DNA of 64,000 bases from Escherichia phage EC148: sequence record NC_106721.1; one strand, written 5' to 3'. The notes beneath the pieces are model-generated. The model did not search any database and was not told where the DNA came from. It saw only the letters and a list, made by a program, of their open reading frames with translations. The position numbers and the translations under genes are program-made. Of the stretch, positions 1 to 6,840 are shown one piece after another; within the stretch, counting starts at the first letter, position 1, and every line of letters starts with the position of its first letter.

Positions 1-101
1 TTTACCATAATGAGCGAGTAAGGATTTTGATGTATTCTTACCTAACCGTTTGTCACTTACTACTAATCGAAATACTTTCATTTCGAAATCCTCTATTAAA
101 A

Positions 102-179
102 TGGAAGCGGGTGCAGGAATCGAACCTACCTCTTTCTAGCTTATGAGACTAGCGATCTCTACCAGAGATCTAACCCGCA
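102..179 (-). tRNA. tRNA, anticodon CAU (Met/fMet- or Ile2-type)
   Basis: Cloverleaf folded by eye on minus strand: CCA encoded (plus 102-104 TGG), acceptor 106-112, T-arm 113-129 with T-loop TTCGATT, anticodon loop CTCATAA (plus 141-147); 1:72 pair appears unpaired (U-U). Confidence 0.5.
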
Positions 180-185
180 ATTGTT

Positions 186-261
186 TGGTCAGTGCGGCAG
201 GACTCGAACCTGCGACCCGAAGCATCCAAGGCTCCCACGCTACCAACTGCGCTACGCACTG
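186..261 (-). tRNA. tRNA-Pro (anticodon UGG)
   Basis: Perfect 7-bp acceptor stem (CAGTGCG/CGCACTG), T-arm GGTTCGAGTCC, anticodon stem GGAGC/GCTTC with loop CTTGGAT, CCA encoded. Confidence 0.7.
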
Positions 262-270
262 TTAATTCTT

Positions 271-468
271 TTATTGTGGAGGAATATTAATAATTCGTCC
301 GTCTACACAATAAACGGTACTAGGAATTGTACTATATATGTAGAAATTCTTTATATTACTCTCTCCGCCACAGAAATTTTTAGCAAATTCATACTCTTTA
401 TTAATGGTTGAGTCAAGTTTAAAACAACCAGTAAGTAGGAATACAGACAGCAGTAAAACTTTTTTCAT
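271..468 (-). CDS. small lipoprotein (signal peptide plus lipobox LLTGC), 65 aa
   Basis: N-terminus MKKVLLLSVFLLTGC; AGGAAA Shine-Dalgarno upstream; own promoter at 501-529. Confidence 0.55.
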   Translation of the reverse strand: MKKVLLLSVFLLTGCFKLDSTINKEYEFAKNFCGGESNIKNFYIYSTIPSTVYCVDGRIINIPPQ

Positions 469-500
469 TTTGCTTTCCTTCTCAACACTTTATAAGGTAT

Positions 501-529
501 ATTATACAGAGAATTAAGCATAATAGCAA
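501..529 (-). promoter_or_regulatory. sigma70-type promoter (minus strand) for the lipoprotein gene
   Basis: Read on minus strand: -35 TTGCTA, 17-nt spacer, -10 TATAAT, with A-rich upstream and extended TG. Confidence 0.6.
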
Positions 530-679
530 ATGAATTTTTAATAAATTTACTTATTGTGTAGGCCACCTGGAGGCTACCAACCCCACGGCTGACAAAGAAG
601 TTTGCGAGACCTCTCTTAAGTGCCAGAATAGACCCGCCGATCTATCGGAACCTACATAATAAGTAAACTTTATAGTGTC

Positions 680-799
680 ATTCTAGACAGGACTCGAACC
701 TGTTATCACTTGTGCGGACTTACGAGAACCATTCTTTCACTCGAATCGAACGAGCTTCTGCCCTCGCCAAGCTGGTTTCCCCATCAACCACGCTAGAAT
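680..799 (-). ncRNA. tRNA-like element, about 120 nt, not resolvable as a canonical tRNA
   Basis: Perfect T-arm ACAGG-TTCGAGT-CCTGT (plus 687-703) and an exact 7-bp acceptor-like pairing between plus 680-686 and 793-799, but 120 nt apart; second T-arm-like motif at plus 739-755. Confidence 0.25.
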
Positions 800-921
800 G
801 TTTGATTGTTTTCAGTGCAAGAGTCCGAGTCTTGGACACGACCGCTTCGCAAGTACATAGGCAGCTTATCATGAGTCAGCACTTCCGAATTGCTAGCTCC
901 GTGTTCTGCACTGAAATTTTA

Positions 922-1269
922 TTAGTTTAACCGTAAAGTATTATCTACTTCACCATTAATTGTTCGGCATTCTTCTGGGATTGCTGGTGTAGCCTTATAT
1001 TCCCACCATTCAGAACCGTCGTATTCACCACGTTCTAACCAAGTTCCATCAGTAAACCACACGTTACCATAAAGCAATTGCCCACCGAAACCAGAATCAT
1101 ATTTAAAGTCTAGATTATTTAGAAAATCTTCAATATCTTTTTCTGTATAACCTACGGGTAACACCCAAACTTCTTTGTCCCCATAATAACCGAATTCTAT
1201 CTTAATACACTTAACTTCAGAATTAATATTCTTTAAGGCAAGTAACAATTCTTCTTTAGCATTAATCAT
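922..1269 (-). CDS. hypothetical protein, 115 aa, Trp/Tyr/Gly-rich
   Basis: Intact ORF between tRNA genes on the same strand as the tRNAs. Confidence 0.5.
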   Translation of the reverse strand: MINAKEELLLALKNINSEVKCIKIEFGYYGDKEVWVLPVGYTEKDIEDFLNNLDFKYDSGFGGQLLYGNVWFTDGTWLERGEYDGSEWWEYKATPAIPEECRTINGEVDNTLRLN

Positions 1270-1295
1270 AGCATATTTCTCGTACTAGTTTAATT

Positions 1296-1372
1296 TGGCG
1301 CGACCGATGGGATTTGAACCCACATTCCCTCCCGTGACAGGGGAGTACCATTACCAAGCCAGCCCCGGTCGC
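1296..1372 (-). tRNA. tRNA-Asp (anticodon GUC)
   Basis: Acceptor GCGACCG/CGGTCGC perfect, T-loop TTCAAAT, anticodon stem CTCCC/GGGAG with loop CTGTCAC, CCA encoded. Confidence 0.65.
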
Positions 1373-1381
1373 ATAATTCAT

Positions 1382-1567
1382 TTACTCAGCTTTGAGTTTT
1401 TCAATAGCTGCATTAAGTTCTTTAAGAAACTTTTTTCGTACATTAAGACGGTTGAGACTTACTAGTATATCATGTTTAAGTTCTTCGATGTATTTCTTCT
1501 CAACTTCAATATTGTTGATAGTGCTATCACGATGAACTTCTAGCTGTGCAATTACATTCTTGGACAT
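1382..1567 (-). CDS. hypothetical small coiled-coil protein, 61 aa
   Basis: ORF with charged heptad-like sequence; co-oriented with neighbours. Confidence 0.4.
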   Translation of the reverse strand: MSKNVIAQLEVHRDSTINNIEVEKKYIEELKHDILVSLNRLNVRKKFLKELNAAIEKLKAE

Positions 1568-1669
1568 GCTTGTTTCCTCAGTTATTAATGAAAATGGTAT
1601 CTGTGACTGAATTCGATGTCAGCAATGATAGCTGGTTGGCTACCGGTTTACTTAACTCTACACAGAATT

Positions 1670-1753
1670 TGGCGGGCCGTGTAGGATTCGAACCTACGTT
1701 GTCTTTCGACATGGATTAACAGTCCACCGCCAAACCGCTTGGCTAACGACCCT
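1670..1753 (-). tRNA. tRNA with anticodon GUU (Asn-type) and a 13-nt variable arm
   Basis: Acceptor GGGTCGT/ACGGCCC, D-stem GCCA/TGGC, anticodon stem GTGGA/TCCAT with loop CTGTTAA, variable arm GTCGAAAGACAAC, T-arm GTAGG-TTCGAAT-CCTAC, CCA encoded; 84 nt. Confidence 0.5.
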
Positions 1754-1904
1754 AAATTTATATTGCTGACTAGGATTTTCACCTAGACGGAGTTAGCACC
1801 GTAGCGTGTAGCGGCATACCTCTCCAAACCGTGCCTCATCTTTCAATTACGGAGACAGTGTTCCTACGCGTGCCTGAATTGATTTAACAACTCTTTCAGC
1901 AAAT

Positions 1905-1980
1905 TGGACGACCGCATGAGATTTGAACTCACATAAAAAGGATTTGCAATCCTTCGCCTAAGCCATTCAGCCAACGGTCG
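1905..1980 (-). tRNA. tRNA-Cys (anticodon GCA)
   Basis: Acceptor with one G-U pair, T-loop TTCAAAT, anticodon stem AAGGA/TCCTT with loop TTGCAAA, CCA encoded. Confidence 0.65.
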
Positions 1981-2028
1981 ATTTATCTTGTTCTGTCATG
2001 TTGCTTCTCCAGTTCAATTTATGTAATT

Positions 2029-2057
2029 ATTATACAGAACTTTTGGAAACTAAGCAA
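2029..2057 (-). promoter_or_regulatory. sigma70-type promoter (minus) upstream of tRNA-Cys
   Basis: -35 TTGCTT / 17 nt / -10 TATAAT on minus strand. Confidence 0.55.
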
Positions 2058-2337
2058 CTACATTTTTTAAAAATTTGATGCCTTTCTTTTTCTTCTTATA
2101 TTTCCACGTTAAGGGATTCTGTCGATTATGAACGCTTGAGATCTTTGTCTCGTCAAAGTTCTTCAATATCATGTAATCACAGGATAATTGTTCTAATGGA
2201 ATGTGATCACCGTCAAAAGCGTATACATAAGGCTGTTGACTAGCACGATAATGATAGACTTTGTTAATTCTACGCTTCAGCAACTTATCCGCGCAGTAAA
2301 TAAAGAAGTTTTCAGGATGCATCAGCAGCTCCCTCAA
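2050..2337 (-). CDS. hypothetical protein, 95 aa
   Basis: ORF co-oriented with the tRNA island. Confidence 0.4.
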   Translation of the reverse strand: MRELLMHPENFFIYCADKLLKRRINKVYHYRASQQPYVYAFDGDHIPLEQLSCDYMILKNFDETKISSVHNRQNPLTWKYKKKKKGIKFLKNVVA

Positions 2338-2339
2338 TT

Positions 2340-2414
2340 TGGTGCACCCTGTTCGTATCGAACGAACCTCTCAAGCTCTTCAGGCAAGCGCTAATCCATC
2401 TCAGCTAAAGGTGC
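2340..2414 (-). tRNA. tRNA-like, anticodon not resolved (possibly CCU); may be degenerate
   Basis: Acceptor pairing plus 2344-2350 with 2408-2414 and perfect T-arm GTTCG-TTCGATA-CGAAC, CCA encoded; only a 4/5-bp anticodon stem could be found. Confidence 0.35.
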
Positions 2415-2420
2415 AAATTT

Positions 2421-2497
2421 TGGCAAACCTACTAGGACTCGAACCTAGACCGTACGGTTTTGGAGACCGACATGCTGTCCAGTAACACTCTAGGAAT
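2421..2497 (-). tRNA. tRNA-Trp (anticodon CCA)
   Basis: T-arm CTAGG-TTCGAGT-CCTAG, anticodon arm CGGT-CTCCAAA-ACCG closely resembling E. coli tRNA-Trp (from memory); acceptor stem has two U-U mismatches; CCA encoded. Confidence 0.5.
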
Positions 2498-2505
2498 GCA
2501 GGAAT

Positions 2506-2582
2506 TGGCGTCCTGTGCGGGGATCGAACCCACAAATCCTACCTTGAAAGGGTAGTGACTTTACCAGTTTGTCTAACAGGAC
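2506..2582 (-). tRNA. tRNA-Glu (anticodon UUC)
   Basis: Perfect acceptor GTCCTGT/ACAGGAC, T-loop TTCGATC, anticodon stem CTACC/GGTAG with loop CTTTCAA, CCA encoded. Confidence 0.7.
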
Positions 2583-2589
2583 TTAAATT

Positions 2590-2680
2590 TGGTGTTGGAT
2601 GATGGAGTCGAACCACCCGAGACCCTTCCGAGTCGGCAGATTTACAGTCTGCTTCGCTACCTCTACGATACTAATCCAAC
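2590..2680 (-). tRNA. tRNA-Tyr (anticodon GUA), about 18-nt variable arm
   Basis: Acceptor GTTGGAT/ATCCAAC perfect, anticodon stem GCAGA/TCTGC with loop CTGTAAA, extended variable arm forming a mini-hairpin, T-arm GGTGG-TTCGACT-CCATC; 91 nt. Confidence 0.6.
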
Positions 2681-2761
2681 ATATTTAAAAGTATTCAAAT
2701 ACTAGTTTAAACACTTTTAGATATGTTTCCAAATTAGATAACTATTATATCAAGTTTTATG

Positions 2762-2800
2762 GCACTGAGCAAGTCAAATTTTAAAGAACTTGCTCAGTGC
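2762..2800. terminator. 12-bp-stem hairpin (possible terminator) just downstream of the TGA-containing ORF
   Basis: GCACTGAGCAAG ... CTTGCTCAGTGC inverted repeat; weak T-run. Confidence 0.4.
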
Positions 2801-2808
2801 TGTATTAG

Positions 2809-3084
2809 TTAGTCGAACTTAGGAGCGACAGTTAAGGAGAATGGAAGTTCGAAAACTTCTTCGCCCTCATCACTAACAGTAATTACACGACCTTTAAGTT
2901 CAGACATTGAAATATCAATATCAGCTTTTGCATCTGGAGCCATGCCAGCTTCAATACATTTAGCTTTAACTTCCGGCAGAAGTTCTACATCGTAGAAATA
3001 AAGCCATTCAATCTCACCTTCCCAGCCTTCTCAGGATTTACAGATTGCACTTTCAATACCAGTTGCTATAACACGATTTTGCAT
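2809..3084 (-). CDS. hypothetical protein interrupted by an in-frame TGA at codon 18 (readthrough candidate or disrupted gene)
   Basis: ATG at plus 3084-3082 with GAAGGAG Shine-Dalgarno 7 nt upstream; frame reads MQNRVIATGIESAICKS-TGA-EGWEGEIEWLYFYDVELL... to TAA at plus 2811-2809. Confidence 0.35.
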
Positions 3085-3174
3085 TCGTTAACTCCTTCAT
3101 CAATTTATATAACTATTATACCAGAAATTTAAAGCAAAAGGCAAGTACATTTTTAAAAATTCTGTTTGGAGGAG

Positions 3175-3381
3175 CTAAACTCCAGATTCTTCAGCTAAGT
3201 CTAGGCTAATAAGAGATATAGCCATAATTGCTGCTCCGTGTTCTCTTTCTCCTGTCTCTTTAGCTAGGGTTATAATATCAAGAAATTGCTTATGAAAGTC
3301 TGCAACCTCTTGAGTCATACCTGCCTCAGCAATCATGCCTTTAAGCATGAAACGTTGTGCGGTAATTTCGGGATTAGCCAT
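3175..3381 (-). CDS. hypothetical protein, 68 aa
   Basis: ORF; start overlaps stop of upstream small ORF (ATGGCTAA arrangement). Confidence 0.45.
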   Translation of the reverse strand: MANPEITAQRFMLKGMIAEAGMTQEVADFHKQFLDIITLAKETGEREHGAAIMAISLISLDLAEESGV

Positions 3382-3541
3382 GTTGTTTCTCCAGTTTCAT
3401 GTTTAATAGTCTACAAATAAAATCAATGTCTTCATCTGTGCCTAGATCTCTATCTTCAAGAGTTGCCTTGAAGTTTTTCGTCAATTCCATGAGGATAACT
3501 TCTCTAGAACGACGTGTTGGCGGAGGTGGATGTCTATACAT
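3374..3541 (-). CDS. hypothetical small protein, 55 aa (MYRHPPPPTRR...)
   Basis: Hand-translated; AAGGAAA Shine-Dalgarno upstream; below the length cut-off of the supplied ORF track. Confidence 0.35.
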   Translation of the reverse strand: MYRHPPPPTRRSREVILMELTKNFKATLEDRDLGTDEDIDFICRLLNMKLEKQHG

Positions 3542-3556
3542 CTTATTTCCTTAAGT

Positions 3557-3633
3557 TGGTAGGGGTGGTGGGATTCGAACCCACAAAACCTGAATTTTAA
3601 GTCCAGTACCTATACCAATTCGATTACACCCCC
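3557..3633 (-). tRNA. tRNA with anticodon UAA (Leu-type anticodon) but short 5-nt variable arm
   Basis: Acceptor GGGGGTG/CACCCCT (one G-U), T-arm GTGGG-TTCGAAT-CCCAC, anticodon stem CTGGA/TTCAG with loop CTTAAAA, CCA encoded; D-stem poorly defined. Confidence 0.5.
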
Positions 3634-3734
3634 ATGTAATCAGTTTATTAGTTGATACATATTATAGCCTAGTGAAAATCCTACTACTAGTCCCACAAAC
3701 CAACCAATATAATAATCTTTTAGTTTCACAGGTA

Positions 3735-3920
3735 TTATCCTCGTTCAATATCTAGGGAAACACCGCAGTTAGGATTAATACCTGTACCGTTGCAATTTGA
3801 ACAAATCCAGATATTGCAAAAAGTATCTCCTGCTTCTGCATCAGAACTTTCACCAATTCCCCTACACTCAGGGCAGGCACATTCTTCTAGCTCTTGCTTG
3901 AGTTCTTGAAACTTGGACAT
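3735..3920 (-). CDS. Cys-rich zinc-ribbon-like small protein, 61 aa
   Basis: Paired Cys motifs CACPEC ... CSNCNG. Confidence 0.45.
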   Translation of the reverse strand: MSKFQELKQELEECACPECRGIGESSDAEAGDTFCNIWICSNCNGTGINPNCGVSLDIERG

Positions 3921-3929
3921 ATAGTCTCC

Positions 3930-4121
3930 TTAGTCAATTACTTTTGAGGCTTCAAGGGAGTCGATATAGTATACGTTTTCTACCATAATCATATAATCTG
4001 CCACTTTATCCATAGCTTGGGCCTCAGAGGTAGCTCTGGCTAACCTATATCCTTTTTTATATTCATCCGGGTATTCTCTATCTTGAATAAATACAACATA
4101 AACTATGTATAATTCCACTTG
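3930..4121 (-). CDS. hypothetical protein; start uncertain (possible GTG start)
   Basis: The supplied ORF 3930-4265 runs through tRNA genes at 4139-4216, so the true start must lie below about 4130. Confidence 0.3.
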   Translation of the reverse strand, partial: QVELYIVYVVFIQDREYPDEYKKGYRLARATSEAQAMDKVADYMIMVENVYYIDSLEASKVID

Positions 4122-4138
4122 TAATCCCCTAATTAAGT

Positions 4139-4216
4139 TGGTGGCTCCCCGAGGATTCGAACCTACGTACCTTCCGGTTATGAGCCGGGTGCTCATACCA
4201 TATGAGCTTGAGAACC
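4139..4216 (-). tRNA. tRNA, anticodon CAU (Met/Ile2-type)
   Basis: Acceptor with two G-U pairs, D-stem GCTC/GAGC, anticodon stem CCGG/CCGG with loop CTCATAA, weak 3-bp T-stem around TTCGAAT, CCA encoded. Confidence 0.5.
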
Positions 4217-4222
4217 AGAATT

Positions 4223-4311
4223 TGGCGGAAGAAGTGGGAATCGAACCCACAAGGCTATATTTCAAACCGACAGATTAGCAATCTGCTGCAATACCGTTAT
4301 GCTATTCTTCC
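4223..4311 (-). tRNA. tRNA-Ser (anticodon GCU), type II
   Basis: Perfect acceptor GGAAGAA/TTCTTCC, anticodon stem GCAGA/TCTGT with loop TTGCTAA, long variable arm, T-arm GTGGG-TTCGATT-CCCAC; 89 nt. Confidence 0.65.
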
Positions 4312-4326
4312 GAATTTATAAGATAT

Positions 4327-4355
4327 ATTATATTAGAAATTTAGCTTCATAGCAA
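4327..4355 (-). promoter_or_regulatory. sigma70-type promoter (minus) driving the tRNA-Ser / tRNA-CAU cluster
   Basis: -35 TTGCTA / 17 nt / -10 TATAAT on minus strand, directly upstream of the tRNA at 4223-4311. Confidence 0.6.
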
Positions 4356-4851
4356 GAAAATTTTTCAAGTTTTCGGTAGACATCTCATCCACATCTACGG
4401 GAGAAACAAAGCCGTTTAATTTTCTAGCAAATTTTTCACCCGCAGGATCGTTGTCTCCGACAGCTACCAATTTAAAAGGTAATAATTTCAGTTGCTTTAA
4501 TAACGCTTTTCCTGGAGAAGAACCTAACATTGCCAGGGCTGGATAACCAGCGTTATGTAGCGCAACTGCCTTAAATACAGATTCAGCGATCAATACTACT
4601 TTTTCATCTCCATTGAGAGTTTCTAGTCCCCATACACACTGGGTAGTAGAATAAGTAAAATATTTAGCTTCAAAGGGACACTTACCATGACCTTTTGGAG
4701 CAGAAGGATTATACGTCTGATAGCCTCGCAACATCCCGGAGAAGTCATACAACGGGACTGTTAGCCATCCTTCCGGACTTAACCAGCAATGATATTTATC
4801 TGTATCAAATCCTCTGGATAAGAGGTGCTGTGTTAGCTCATCAACATTCAT
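4333..4851 (-). CDS. Toprim-domain protein (DnaG-like catalytic core, no zinc finger)
   Basis: Conserved Glu in VVLIAESVF and DxD in LVAVGDNDPAGEKFARKL; start set at MNVDEL because the promoter at 4882-4910 lies inside the longer ORF. Confidence 0.55.
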   Translation of the reverse strand: MNVDELTQHLLSRGFDTDKYHCWLSPEGWLTVPLYDFSGMLRGYQTYNPSAPKGHGKCPFEAKYFTYSTTQCVWGLETLNGDEKVVLIAESVFKAVALHNAGYPALAMLGSSPGKALLKQLKLLPFKLVAVGDNDPAGEKFARKLNGFVSPVDVDEMSTENLKNFLAMKLNF

Positions 4852-4881
4852 ATTTGGTTCCTCTCTCAAATTTATAGATAT

Positions 4882-4910
4882 ATTATACAGAGAATTTAGC
4901 ATTCAAGCAA
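4882..4910 (-). promoter_or_regulatory. sigma70-type promoter (minus) for the Toprim-protein gene
   Basis: -35 TTGCTT / 17 nt / -10 TATAAT on minus strand. Confidence 0.55.
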
Positions 4911-5025
4911 TCAAATTTTTTAACTTTTTAGAGGAAAATCATAGGGCACTTAAGGGTAGCAGATAAGTGGGGAGGACCAAAATTTGTGACCCCACTAAAA
5001 ATCCGGGGGCAATTTTTAAAGACCC

Positions 5026-5054
5026 CTTGACATTTTCGCTGGGGTAGTGTAAAG
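5026..5054 (+). promoter_or_regulatory. sigma70-type promoter for the plus-strand three-gene cassette
   Basis: -35 TTGACA (5026-5031), 17-nt spacer, -10 TAAAGT (5049-5054). Confidence 0.55.
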
Positions 5055-5117
5055 TATATGTTATGGATGAGTGATCAAAGAGACACACATTTTCTATATA
5101 CTAGGAGGTGTCAAAAT

Positions 5118-6107
5118 ATGACAGAAGAAGTAGCTAAGAGTCCTGAGACCGTCGCTAGCGTTGCAGCAGAACTGCACAGTCACGAGGAATCAGATAAGAA
5201 AAAGTGGGAGAAGGTCAGAGCCTACGAAGAAAAACATCGTGAACACGATGATGAAGAAGAAGATGACGATGATGAACATTGTCATAAATATGGAAAACAT
5301 AAAATGCAAGAACCAGTAAACGTATTCACTAGTGGCTTCCCTGGCCTACTGGGTGGTTACCCAGCAAACGCAGGTGCTTTCGGTGGTGAAGGTATGGGAC
5401 TATTCGGAGCTATCCTAATCGGTGCTCTATTAACCGGCGGATTCGGTGGTTTCGGTGGATTCGGTGGACGTGGTGTAGTTGGTGAAGGTACCGCAGTTGA
5501 TGCAGTACTTCAGAACCAAGATACCGCTAGTATTCTAGCAGCTATCAACACTACTCGTACAGAGGCTAACCAGGGTACTGGAGCTGTTTTAAGCGCAGTT
5601 AACAATGGTTTTAGCCAGACAACCCAAAACCAGAGCCGTGATACTCAGTCTGTACTAACTACGATCTACGGTACAGGTGCTAATCTGTCTAATCAGATCT
5701 GCCAGGAAACTCGCAACGTTATTCAGGGTCAGTTCGATCTTTCTCGCCAGATTGATCAATCTTTCGCAGCTAACCAGATAGCTCGTGCACAAGATAAGTT
5801 TGATTCTGCACAGATCGCTTTCCAGCAGACTTTACAAACTAATAACCAGTTTGCCGCTGTTCAGGCTCAGATGTGTGCTAACCAGAACTCTCTGGAACGT
5901 CAGATCGCTGAATGTTGCTGTGAACTTCAGACTGCGATCGCTGGTGTAACTACTGCGCGTATCCAGGATGAGTTAGACGCATGTCGCCTACGTGAAGCAA
6001 TCGCTGCGGGTAGCGGTGCTAACGGTCAGGTAATTAATCAAATCGCTTTAAGTCTTGGTGCTATCACTCAGACTCTGGCTGGTCTGCAGGCTAAACTGCC
6101 GGCTTAA
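5118..6107 (+). CDS. hypothetical low-complexity protein: polyacidic N-terminus, Gly-zipper hydrophobic segment, Gln/Asn/Thr-rich C-terminal region with Cys cluster
   Basis: Strong RBS TAGGAGGTG before ATG 5118; promoter at 5026-5054; translation-optimised codon choice; no recognisable catalytic motif. Confidence 0.6.
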   Translation: MTEEVAKSPETVASVAAELHSHEESDKKKWEKVRAYEEKHREHDDEEEDDDDEHCHKYGKHKMQEPVNVFTSGFPGLLGGYPANAGAFGGEGMGLFGAILIGALLTGGFGGFGGFGGRGVVGEGTAVDAVLQNQDTASILAAINTTRTEANQGTGAVLSAVNNGFSQTTQNQSRDTQSVLTTIYGTGANLSNQICQETRNVIQGQFDLSRQIDQSFAANQIARAQDKFDSAQIAFQQTLQTNNQFAAVQAQMCANQNSLERQIAECCCELQTAIAGVTTARIQDELDACRLREAIAAGSGANGQVINQIALSLGAITQTLAGLQAKLPA

Positions 6108-6128
6108 TATTAAGGGGAGGAGCCCATT

Positions 6129-6545
6129 ATGAGTAAATATGGTTTTGTAAATAACGGACTTAATCAAAGTATGGGCTCCCAGCAGCCCATTCCGGGTCTG
6201 GATAACCCCTACTTACAACAGTTGCAACAGCGTTTAGCAGAAGCGCAACAGATGCAGCAACAACTCCAGCAAAACCCTGGAAGTGTGAGTCCTATGCAAA
6301 TGATGCAGCAAATGAGCGGGCAGTCGCAAATGCCTCAACAAATGCAGCAACAGGTGCCTCAGCAGCAAGTTCAGCAACAAACCCAACAACCGCAGGTTTC
6401 TGCGGAAGGACAGGCAGTACTAGCCCTTTTCGAAGACTTCGCAAAGACAGAGGATGGGAAACAGCTTGTATCACTTATGGGTAAGTTTAATAGCTTCTGC
6501 CAAAGCCAAGTTGCAAAAGCTCAAAATGGGGGTAGTAACTCCTAA
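6129..6545 (+). CDS. hypothetical Gln-rich protein, 138 aa
   Basis: RBS AAGGGGAGG; Q-rich repeats (PQQMQQQ...). Confidence 0.6.
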   Translation: MSKYGFVNNGLNQSMGSQQPIPGLDNPYLQQLQQRLAEAQQMQQQLQQNPGSVSPMQMMQQMSGQSQMPQQMQQQVPQQQVQQQTQQPQVSAEGQAVLALFEDFAKTEDGKQLVSLMGKFNSFCQSQVAKAQNGGSNS

Positions 6546-6554
6546 GGAGGAAAT

Positions 6555-6749
6555 ATGTGTTGCAGAAAATCTGTTTCGTGCTGCCCAGTGCCTGTAGCAC
6601 GTTGTTGCTCTCCAGCAATGTTTACGCAAATACCGGCGTTCAATCCCTTTGCCTTTAAGCCTACTCTTATCCTGCCCCCTAGAGTAGATTTTCAGTCAAG
6701 ATTGGCCTCCCGTATGGGTGGTTGCTGTACACCGAGAGTATGGTTCTAA
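6555..6749 (+). CDS. hypothetical Cys-rich small protein, 64 aa
   Basis: RBS AAGGAGG; 8 Cys including CC pairs; followed by terminator hairpins. Confidence 0.55.
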   Translation: MCCRKSVSCCPVPVARCCSPAMFTQIPAFNPFAFKPTLILPPRVDFQSRLASRMGGCCTPRVWF

Positions 6750-6761
6750 ACCAAAAACAAA

Positions 6762-6795
6762 AGCCCCTGCCGAAAGGTAAGGGGCTTTTTCTTTT
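6762..6795 (+). terminator. rho-independent terminator ending the plus-strand cassette
   Basis: AGCCCCT...AGGGGCT hairpin followed by TTTTTCTTTT. Confidence 0.65.
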
Positions 6796-6799
6796 GCCT

Positions 6800-6840
6800 T
6801 AAATACAGAAAAGCCCGCGCTCTCGTAGGAAACGCGGGCT
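6800..6840 (-). terminator. rho-independent terminator for the SPFH gene (convergent with the previous one)
   Basis: GCCCGCG...CGCGGGC hairpin followed on minus strand by TTTTCTGTATTT. Confidence 0.6.

Follow-up and report, generated by a model that had tools for sequence, protein, structure and literature searches.

The window analyzed here, a 64,000-nt stretch of Escherichia phage EC148 (NC_106721.1), begins with a tRNA cluster in which ARAGORN and Rfam find 12–14 tRNA genes, every one on the minus strand and within positions 100–8500. Over its first 9 kb the window shares 99.9% identity with T5-like phages (Tequintavirus; T5_ev212, SUT_E420), and it matches 601 phage records. The same minus-strand cluster holds three further elements, referred to here as elements 1 (676–800), 2 (1763–1902) and 3 (8424–8495), which lie among short ORFs and tRNAs with a single direction of transcription and none of which is called by ARAGORN (Table 1). 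The T-arm-like word GGTTCRANTCC, allowing one mismatch, occurs 17 times in the window versus 4.25 expected, a count reached in 0 of 100 shuffles. Thirteen of these matches fall on the minus strand within 1–8500, and the only ones there that lie outside tRNAs are at 690–700 (element 1) and 8435–8445 (element 3).

RNA2 and its neighborhood

Element 1 could be identified by comparison with T5 itself. Across 456 nt the T5 record AY543070 and the window align without a gap at 98% mean column identity, the misc_RNA annotated as rna2 maps to 676–800 with differences at 4 of its 125 positions, and element 1 is therefore T5 RNA2. Its flanks and synteny are identical to those in T5, with RNAIV downstream and a homolog of T5.067 upstream. 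In AY543070, where the tRNA region carries a series of misc_RNA features including rna2, rnaIV, rna3 and rnaX, the gene is labeled "tRNA-like stable RNA with unknown functions"; in the other T5 record (AY587007) and in most T5-like records it is unannotated or overlaid by a hypothetical ORF. An ORF check of the window gave no meaningful ORF spanning RNA2. In Serratia phage Slocum (our stretch L004), a CDS for a "hypothetical novel protein" (1455–1634, plus strand) lies opposite the RNA2 homolog (1490–1609, minus strand), and is probably a mis-annotated RNA gene.

Because RNA2 is an annotated T5 gene, finding it here is a rediscovery, and element 3 is also already known (as a pseudo-tRNA, as tRNA-OTHER and as part of rnaX). 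In the literature that we searched, which did not extend to the original T5 papers of the 1980s, we found no account of the structure or function of RNA2, nor of its family architecture, its internal module or its spread to T4-like Acinetobacter phages and tRNA arrays; we claim no priority for these.

Several neighboring stretches have features of their own. T5 rnaIV, a "stable RNA with unknown functions", corresponds to 555–657 (minus strand) and folds as a closed multi-hairpin (z = -1.58). A strong promoter-like site at 529–501, T5 promoter P13a, lies immediately downstream of RNA2 and RNAIV. Relatives in Epseptimavirus have a tRNA-Gly gene, sometimes together with tRNA-Lys, inserted between these two RNAs. 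On the other side of RNA2, the 115 nt at 804–918 (minus strand), between it and the T5.067-like ORF (922–1269), are closed by a 10-bp helix (UUUCAGUGCA/UGCACUGAAA). This stretch is identical in T5, has no annotation there and may represent a further small RNA or a hairpin for processing, with a fold z of only -1.47. Further along, 1595–1667 (minus strand) is T5 rna3, a "putative tRNA-like RNA" (fold z = -2.9).

Table 1. Positions of the three elements and their parts in the window
Feature	Position	Strand	Pairing or evidence
RNA2 (T5 gene rna2; element 1)	676–800	-	AY543070 misc_RNA mapped by gap-free alignment; core fold 680–799
Acceptor stem, 5' strand AUUCUAG	793–799	-	pairs with 680–686; exact 7 bp
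D-arm UGGU-UGAUGGGGAA-ACCA	773–790	-	4/4 stem pairs covary; 98.4% of cells paired
Anticodon-like stem, 5' strand GCUUG	768–772	-	pairs with 708–712
Module of about 55 nt in place of the 7-nt anticodon loop	713–767	-	conservation and pair counts
Module helix B	760–763 with 716–719	-	comparative model
Module helix B'	757–758 with 724–725	-	comparative model
Second, internal T-arm GCUCG-UUCGAUU-CGAGU, canonical T-loop	739–755	-	4/5 stem pairs covary
Unpaired stretch UGAAAGAAUGGUUC	726–739	-	columns invariant or nearly so across the family
Anticodon-like stem, 3' strand CAAGU	708–712	-	pairs with 768–772
T-arm 1 ACAGG-UUCGAGU-CCUGU	687–703	-	3/5 pairs covary; 96.8% of cells paired
Acceptor stem, 3' strand CUAGAAU	680–686	-	followed by GACA (676–679) in the annotated RNA
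Element 2, tRNA-shaped RNA, 140 nt	1763–1902	-	covariation
Acceptor-like helix UUGCUGA/UCAGCAA, 7 bp	1896–1902 with 1763–1769	-	
D-like hairpin, 6 bp	1876–1893	-	
Long helix, 10 bp, GGCAC-G-CGUAG with CUACG-GUGCU	1864–1874 with 1795–1804	-	encloses a domain of about 59 nt
T-like arm CUAGG-UGAAAAU-CCUAG, non-canonical T-loop	1770–1786	-	preceded by an 8-nt variable region
Element 3, non-canonical tRNA-like RNA	8424–8495	-	Rfam tRNA 35.5 bits, gathering threshold 29

Architecture and conservation of RNA2

In what follows, nucleotide n of RNA2 is window position 800-n. A sequence-only reading of this DNA had pointed to a perfect T-arm and an exact 7-bp helix enclosing 680–799, with a second T-arm-like motif inside; all three are present on the minus strand, the inner one as a canonical T-arm. 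As annotated, the RNA starts 1 nt before the acceptor helix. Of the explanations offered then, an interrupted tRNA suits element 1 well, as the RNA forms a cloverleaf whose anticodon loop is replaced by the 55-nt module, whereas a fusion of tRNAs is not supported, as the second T-arm comes without an acceptor stem, a D-arm or an anticodon arm to go with it. RNA2 cannot decode, having no anticodon in a loop of 7 nt.

Homologs of RNA2 were recovered by BLAST and pattern scans in Serratia phage Slocum, Klebsiella Sugarlandvirus phages, Acinetobacter phage AB2I3 and the T4-like Acinetobacter phages Acj9 and 133, as well as in a 167-kb MAG contig, a 164-kb uncultivated viral contig (L029) and several metagenome contigs. 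A 2-kb query from the otherwise unrelated L029 matched 405 phage records, solely through an RNA2 segment of roughly 80–110 nt. Most copies adjoin tRNA genes, although ARAGORN called none in the stretch of L029 that was examined. In the 1.46-Mb contig Ga0308158_10000004 (L014, 1–8283) ARAGORN finds 47 tRNA genes within 8.3 kb, and the RNA2 homolog (6023–6138) directly follows a tRNA-Gly(GCC) gene.

Since MAFFT misplaced helices when given the full-length members, 19 distinct sequences were aligned by hand and N-padded, with the padding preserved by the aligner. In this alignment, which was made with the structure in mind and whose pair counts therefore lean towards it, 94.5% of cells are paired versus 63.9% in shuffles (0 of 500 as high), the covariation score is 0.767 versus 0.199, and 25 of the 32 pairs show changes on both sides; slid controls are 29–45% paired. 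Two-sided changes affect all seven acceptor pairs (89.6% of cells paired) and all five pairs of the anticodon-like stem (100%). Within the module, pair 40–81 is CG in eight members and UA in eight, and pair 43–75 occurs as all four Watson-Crick types (AU in nine, UA in six, CG in two, GC in one). Both T-loops follow the tRNA rule of UUCRA and then two variable bases: in the second, positions 1–5 are UUCRA in 19/19 members and positions 6–7 vary as in tRNAs. Judged by the alignment, the module is the most conserved part of RNA2, and within it the stretch U61-GAAAGAAUGGUUC-74 is essentially invariant.

With a covariance model derived from the 19 sequences, family members score 79–107 bits and ordinary tRNAs at most 30; the model finds one copy per genome and has a single match in the window (679–799, 107 bits). 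Rfam 15 has no family for RNA2; the search returned a partial tRNA match of 18 bits (gathering threshold 29) and nothing else at E ≤ 10, with zero matches to ribozymes, T-box, YrlA, tmRNA or RNase P-like motifs.

The tRNA frame around the module is more varied. Environmental members have a canonical D-arm (UAGCUUAAyGGUAGAGC), and in the Acinetobacter phage members the D-arm is reduced to a GGNGGAAG loop, the D-stem being missing. Phages 133 and Acj9 have an intact module and a degenerate acceptor stem. The environmental member L019 can be read from one end to the other as a tRNA frame: acceptor GGUCAUC, UA, the canonical D-arm GCUU-AAUUGGUA-GAGC and a G are followed by a 5-bp stem (CCACA/UGUGG) that encloses about 55 nt instead of a 7-nt loop. 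Next come a short variable region and a T-arm, and the RNA closes with the 3' strand of the acceptor and an encoded GCCA.

Such a 3' end, together with a tRNA-like acceptor and T-arm from which the anticodon arm has been displaced by another domain, would suit an RNA that is aminoacylated and works on the ribosome as tmRNA does, in rescue or recoding. Against this, ARAGORN calls no tmRNA, Rfam gives no tmRNA match on RNA2, and the RNA is without a G3-U70 pair, a conserved discriminator or pseudoknots. There is also no conserved reading frame, and the 1-nt deletion carried by Sugarlandvirus members shifts every frame. We consider a tmRNA-like action exceedingly improbable. A narrower version, in which UGGUUCNCRUAA is coding or a tmRNA-like tag, was rejected because the frame is not conserved and there is no meaningful ORF.

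The placement of the module invites another reading, namely that RNA2 is an intron-containing pre-tRNA that is spliced to a normal decoding tRNA. The insertion lies exactly at the tRNA intron site in the anticodon loop, and the junction, a 4-bp helix with 3–4 unpaired nt at its flanks, loosely resembles a bulge-helix-bulge. However, once the module is excised, neither a 7-nt loop nor U33 nor a conserved anticodon remains; its 55 nt fall far short of a group I intron, and zero intron families match at E ≤ 10. The would-be intron is moreover better conserved than its exons, and the discriminator base differs among members, which argues against a shared amino-acid identity. To our knowledge, no tRNA splicing endonuclease exists in bacteria. 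Splicing to a decoding tRNA is thus extremely unlikely.

It should be noted that single-sequence folding does not discriminate the elements from shuffled sequence, either for element 1 (z = -0.94) or for element 2 (z = -0.95), and that covariation provides the decisive support for both predicted folds. The fold of the distal module of RNA2 is a candidate: the comparative model has an energy of -21.8 kcal/mol versus -33.8 kcal/mol for the minimum free energy (MFE) structure, compatibility with an alternative MFE helix (nt 34–40 with 71–77) is 80% across the family, and positions 37 and 86 show perfect covariation beyond what the proposed fold accounts for. The comparative model is preferred because the long-range MFE helix (CGAGGGC/GUUCUCG) is without two-sided covariation and clashes with the strongly covarying 43–75 pair. 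Other pairings were tried and abandoned. An alternative acceptor stem between the 5' end and the internal AGAAU, which would yield a 69-nt mini-tRNA, was rejected because AGAAU is invariant and the 5' end variable; a K-turn at the internal loop between helices B and B' does not fit the sequence signature in the alignment; and complementarity of the conserved stretch to the 23S sarcin-ricin loop was rejected because the variable N75 would need to be U.

Elements 2 and 3

Element 2 had been described as an enclosed element at 1765–1902 similar to the first. The 7-bp helix and a T-like arm are there, but its extent is 1763–1902 and its UGAAAAU loop is not a canonical T-loop. Compared across T5-like, Sugarlandvirus and Mydovirus phages, element 2 has 97.2% of its cells paired versus 22–43% in slid controls, and 12 of 36 pairs show two-sided changes; one inner hairpin (hairpin 1) was dropped because the register tried was 75% paired. 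Element 2 is found in 218 phage records and is without annotation in nearly all of the 40 records listed. Its hosts include Sugarlandvirus phages and 141–147-kb Klebsiella Mydovirus (Vequintavirinae) phages, where it sits between tRNA-Ser genes. Rfam has no family for it and gives no tRNA match, and the RNA2 covariance model does not match it; by these comparisons, element 2 is unrelated to RNA2.

The element is absent from the T5 type strain. Comparison of AY543070 (L003, 6031–6546) with window positions 1753–1904 indicates that element 2 and the adjacent tRNA-Asn are replaced there by the 519-nt ORF T5.069 and a different tRNA-Asn. In the stretch L060 element 2 is truncated, its 5' half being replaced by the start of an ORF, and Salmonella phage KKP_3822 has a damaged copy. 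These arrangements suggest cassette-like replacement by mobile genes inside the tRNA cluster. The tRNA-Asn(GUU) of the window (1670–1752, minus strand) is itself unusual: it is 83 nt long, its D-stem of 3 bp carries a long D-loop (GCC-AAGCGGUUU-GGC), and there is an additional arm (GUC-GAAA-GAC), which gives it the look of a class II tRNA. The tRNA-Asn found here in the T5 type strain is an ordinary one of 78 nt.

Element 3 had been taken for a T-arm and little else. The T-arm is perfect, but the element also has a D-arm and six of seven acceptor pairs, and its Rfam tRNA score lies above the gathering threshold (Table 1). The canonical anticodon stem is unpaired, and the anticodon arm is reduced to 3–4 bp closed by the 6-nt loop GUAACU. 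Element 3 occurs in 487 phage records under varying labels (tRNA-OTHER, tRNA-SeC(tca), tRNA-Ser, part of rnaX), and AY587007 marks it as a tRNA pseudogene. The short stem is preserved by compensatory changes among relatives, being GCC/GGU in the window, UGGC/GCCG in Klebsiella phage K7rec15 and GGGC/GCCU in Epseptimavirus, which argues that element 3 is a conserved tRNA-like RNA and not a simple wreck. The loop is UUCACC in Epseptimavirus, and Klebsiella phage IME260 has an extra hairpin inside it. The surroundings of element 3 (7922–8640, minus strand), about 720 nt without annotated ORFs, correspond to rnaX of T5 and BF23, a "stable RNA with unknown functions".

The pseudogene label and the collapsed canonical anticodon stem of element 3, like the damaged and truncated copies of element 2, could be taken as signs of decay, the elements then being functionless relics, either pseudo-tRNAs or tRNAs fused by accident; an ancient tRNA insertion could likewise be the source of the internal T-arm of RNA2. 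Decay is difficult to reconcile with compensatory changes that keep every helix of RNA2 and element 2 across distant phage families, with a non-tRNA module that is the best-conserved part of RNA2, or with the covarying short stem of element 3 and its 487 records. A relic origin is therefore very improbable, and degenerate tRNAs, as the sequence-only reading had proposed, do not describe elements 1 and 2. Its more general suggestion of other structured RNAs with tRNA-like ends is borne out by covariation. The absence of both a stable RNA and covariance-model matches had been named as the outcome that would speak against the proposal; AY543070 lists rna2 as a stable RNA, and element 3 passes the tRNA threshold in Rfam. 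Elements 2 and 3 are independent cases of a tRNA-like frame with an altered anticodon arm.

Possible roles and relation to known RNAs

We conclude, with a probability of about 0.7, that the minus strand of 676–800 is T5 RNA2 and that this RNA belongs to a conserved family of non-decoding small RNAs built on a tRNA scaffold; the relic, intron, tmRNA-like and processing-signal explanations are each less likely. Based on tRNA biology, the scaffold would allow RNase P to cut the polycistronic tRNA transcript at the 5' end of RNA2, with the 3' end trimmed, and would confer tRNA-like stability, by which the distal module might be delivered as cargo. From their architecture and position in a tRNA array, processing of the elements by RNase P or RNase Z, which the sequence-only reading had raised, is plausible. 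The degenerate acceptor stem in 133 and Acj9 implies that RNase P-type recognition may not be universal.

Processing could also be the whole purpose. Plant mitochondrial t-elements are tRNA-like processing signals, and the elements here might similarly act in cis as punctuation, with RNase P and RNase Z defining mRNA ends and the released RNA a by-product. Their location among short ORFs and tRNAs that are all transcribed the same way, and that of RNA2 and RNAIV just upstream of P13a, are in keeping with such a role. Punctuation requires an acceptor stem and a T-arm only, however, and leaves an invariant 55-nt module with covarying helices unaccounted for; in 133 and Acj9 it is the acceptor stem that is degenerate and the module that is intact. 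In addition, the rna2 product is annotated in GenBank as a stable RNA. We regard punctuation alone as unlikely.

For a scaffolded RNA, the conserved features of the module suggest how it might work. The second T-loop probably docks on a candidate partner, the invariant GG at 729–730, and would thereby create a second tRNA-like elbow. More speculatively, RNA2 might be a tRNA mimic or decoy that occupies a conserved tRNA-binding factor, for example an anticodon-targeting defense nuclease or a tRNA processing or modification enzyme, and is itself neither decoded nor cut in an anticodon loop. All three RNAs alter specifically the anticodon arm, the part that anticodon nucleases attack, which might fit a decoy role. 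The T5 tRNAs rescue infection from tRNA-cleaving immune systems such as PARIS (PMC11464382). A decoy function for RNA2 is nevertheless conjecture.

A bolder version, which we offer tentatively and think doubtful, would make RNA2 the founder of a widespread class of RNAs with two elbows, found in phages and mobile tRNA arrays and acting in counter-defense or as regulators of the tRNA pool. In such RNAs a second T-loop and the invariant AAUGG would stand in place of the anticodon loop. If this were true, they would bind and neutralize a conserved tRNA-recognizing factor, such as an anticodon nuclease of bacterial immunity, or alternatively would themselves capture tRNA elbows or CCA ends, and elements 2 and 3 would share the strategy of keeping the tRNA body and changing the anticodon arm. 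Reportedly, Glukhov et al. in 2018 found T5 mutants deleted in the tRNA region to be viable, in which case RNA2 would be dispensable in laboratory hosts. T5 and T4 annotations have long carried small stable RNAs without an assigned function. For RNA2 there is now a motif to mutate, a covariance model to search with and the hypothesis of a non-decoding tRNA mimic.

Among known RNAs, T5 RNA2 as annotated in AY543070 by the Ksenzenko laboratory occupies the same locus and differs in nothing material, the annotation being without structure or function. With canonical tRNA (RF00005), RNA2 has in common a 7-bp acceptor stem, a D-arm with GG, a 5-bp anticodon-type stem, a short variable region, a T-arm with a UUCRA loop and a position in a tRNA operon. 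It differs in having a structured 55-nt module for an anticodon loop, in scoring 18 bits where 29 are needed and in being passed over by ARAGORN.

The species 1 and 2 RNAs of T4 (rnaC and rnaD) resemble RNA2 in being small stable RNAs encoded where a phage tRNA cluster ends; rnaC likewise terminates in a canonical T-arm. With the RNA2 model rnaC scores 22.9 bits, the level of an ordinary tRNA, and rnaD does not match, so that no homology is detectable; the short words AUGGUUC and GUAAG that rnaD shares with RNA2 may be chance. The family model likewise does not support homology of RNA2 with element 2. In T5 RNA1 (L003, 2502–2645), which lies outside the window, the D-arm is class II-like (GCCGGAAUUGGUAGACGG), a T-arm stands at the 3' end and there is a hairpin GAGAUA-AAUGGUC-UAUCUC, and T4 rnaC (L010, 2909–3047) contains GGUUGAGAUAUGGCC; the shared word GGUUGAGAUA..AUGG hints that T5 RNA1 and the T4 species 1 RNA may be related.

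The tRNA-like domain of tmRNA and the bacterial Y RNA YrlA, like RNA2, combine a tRNA elbow and an acceptor-like end with another domain at the anticodon end. RNA2, in contrast, is without a tag reading frame, pseudoknots, a Ro-binding helix or an Rfam match to either, and unlike tmRNA it retains the D-stem and an anticodon-type stem. Another parallel in layout is man-made. In engineered tRNA scaffolds a cargo RNA is placed in the anticodon stem, where the surrounding tRNA frame attracts processing enzymes and shields the RNA. A Spinach-tRNA fusion is one example (PMC5397188). RNA2 likewise has its insert at the anticodon loop, but where those scaffolds are artificial, its arrangement is natural and conserved.
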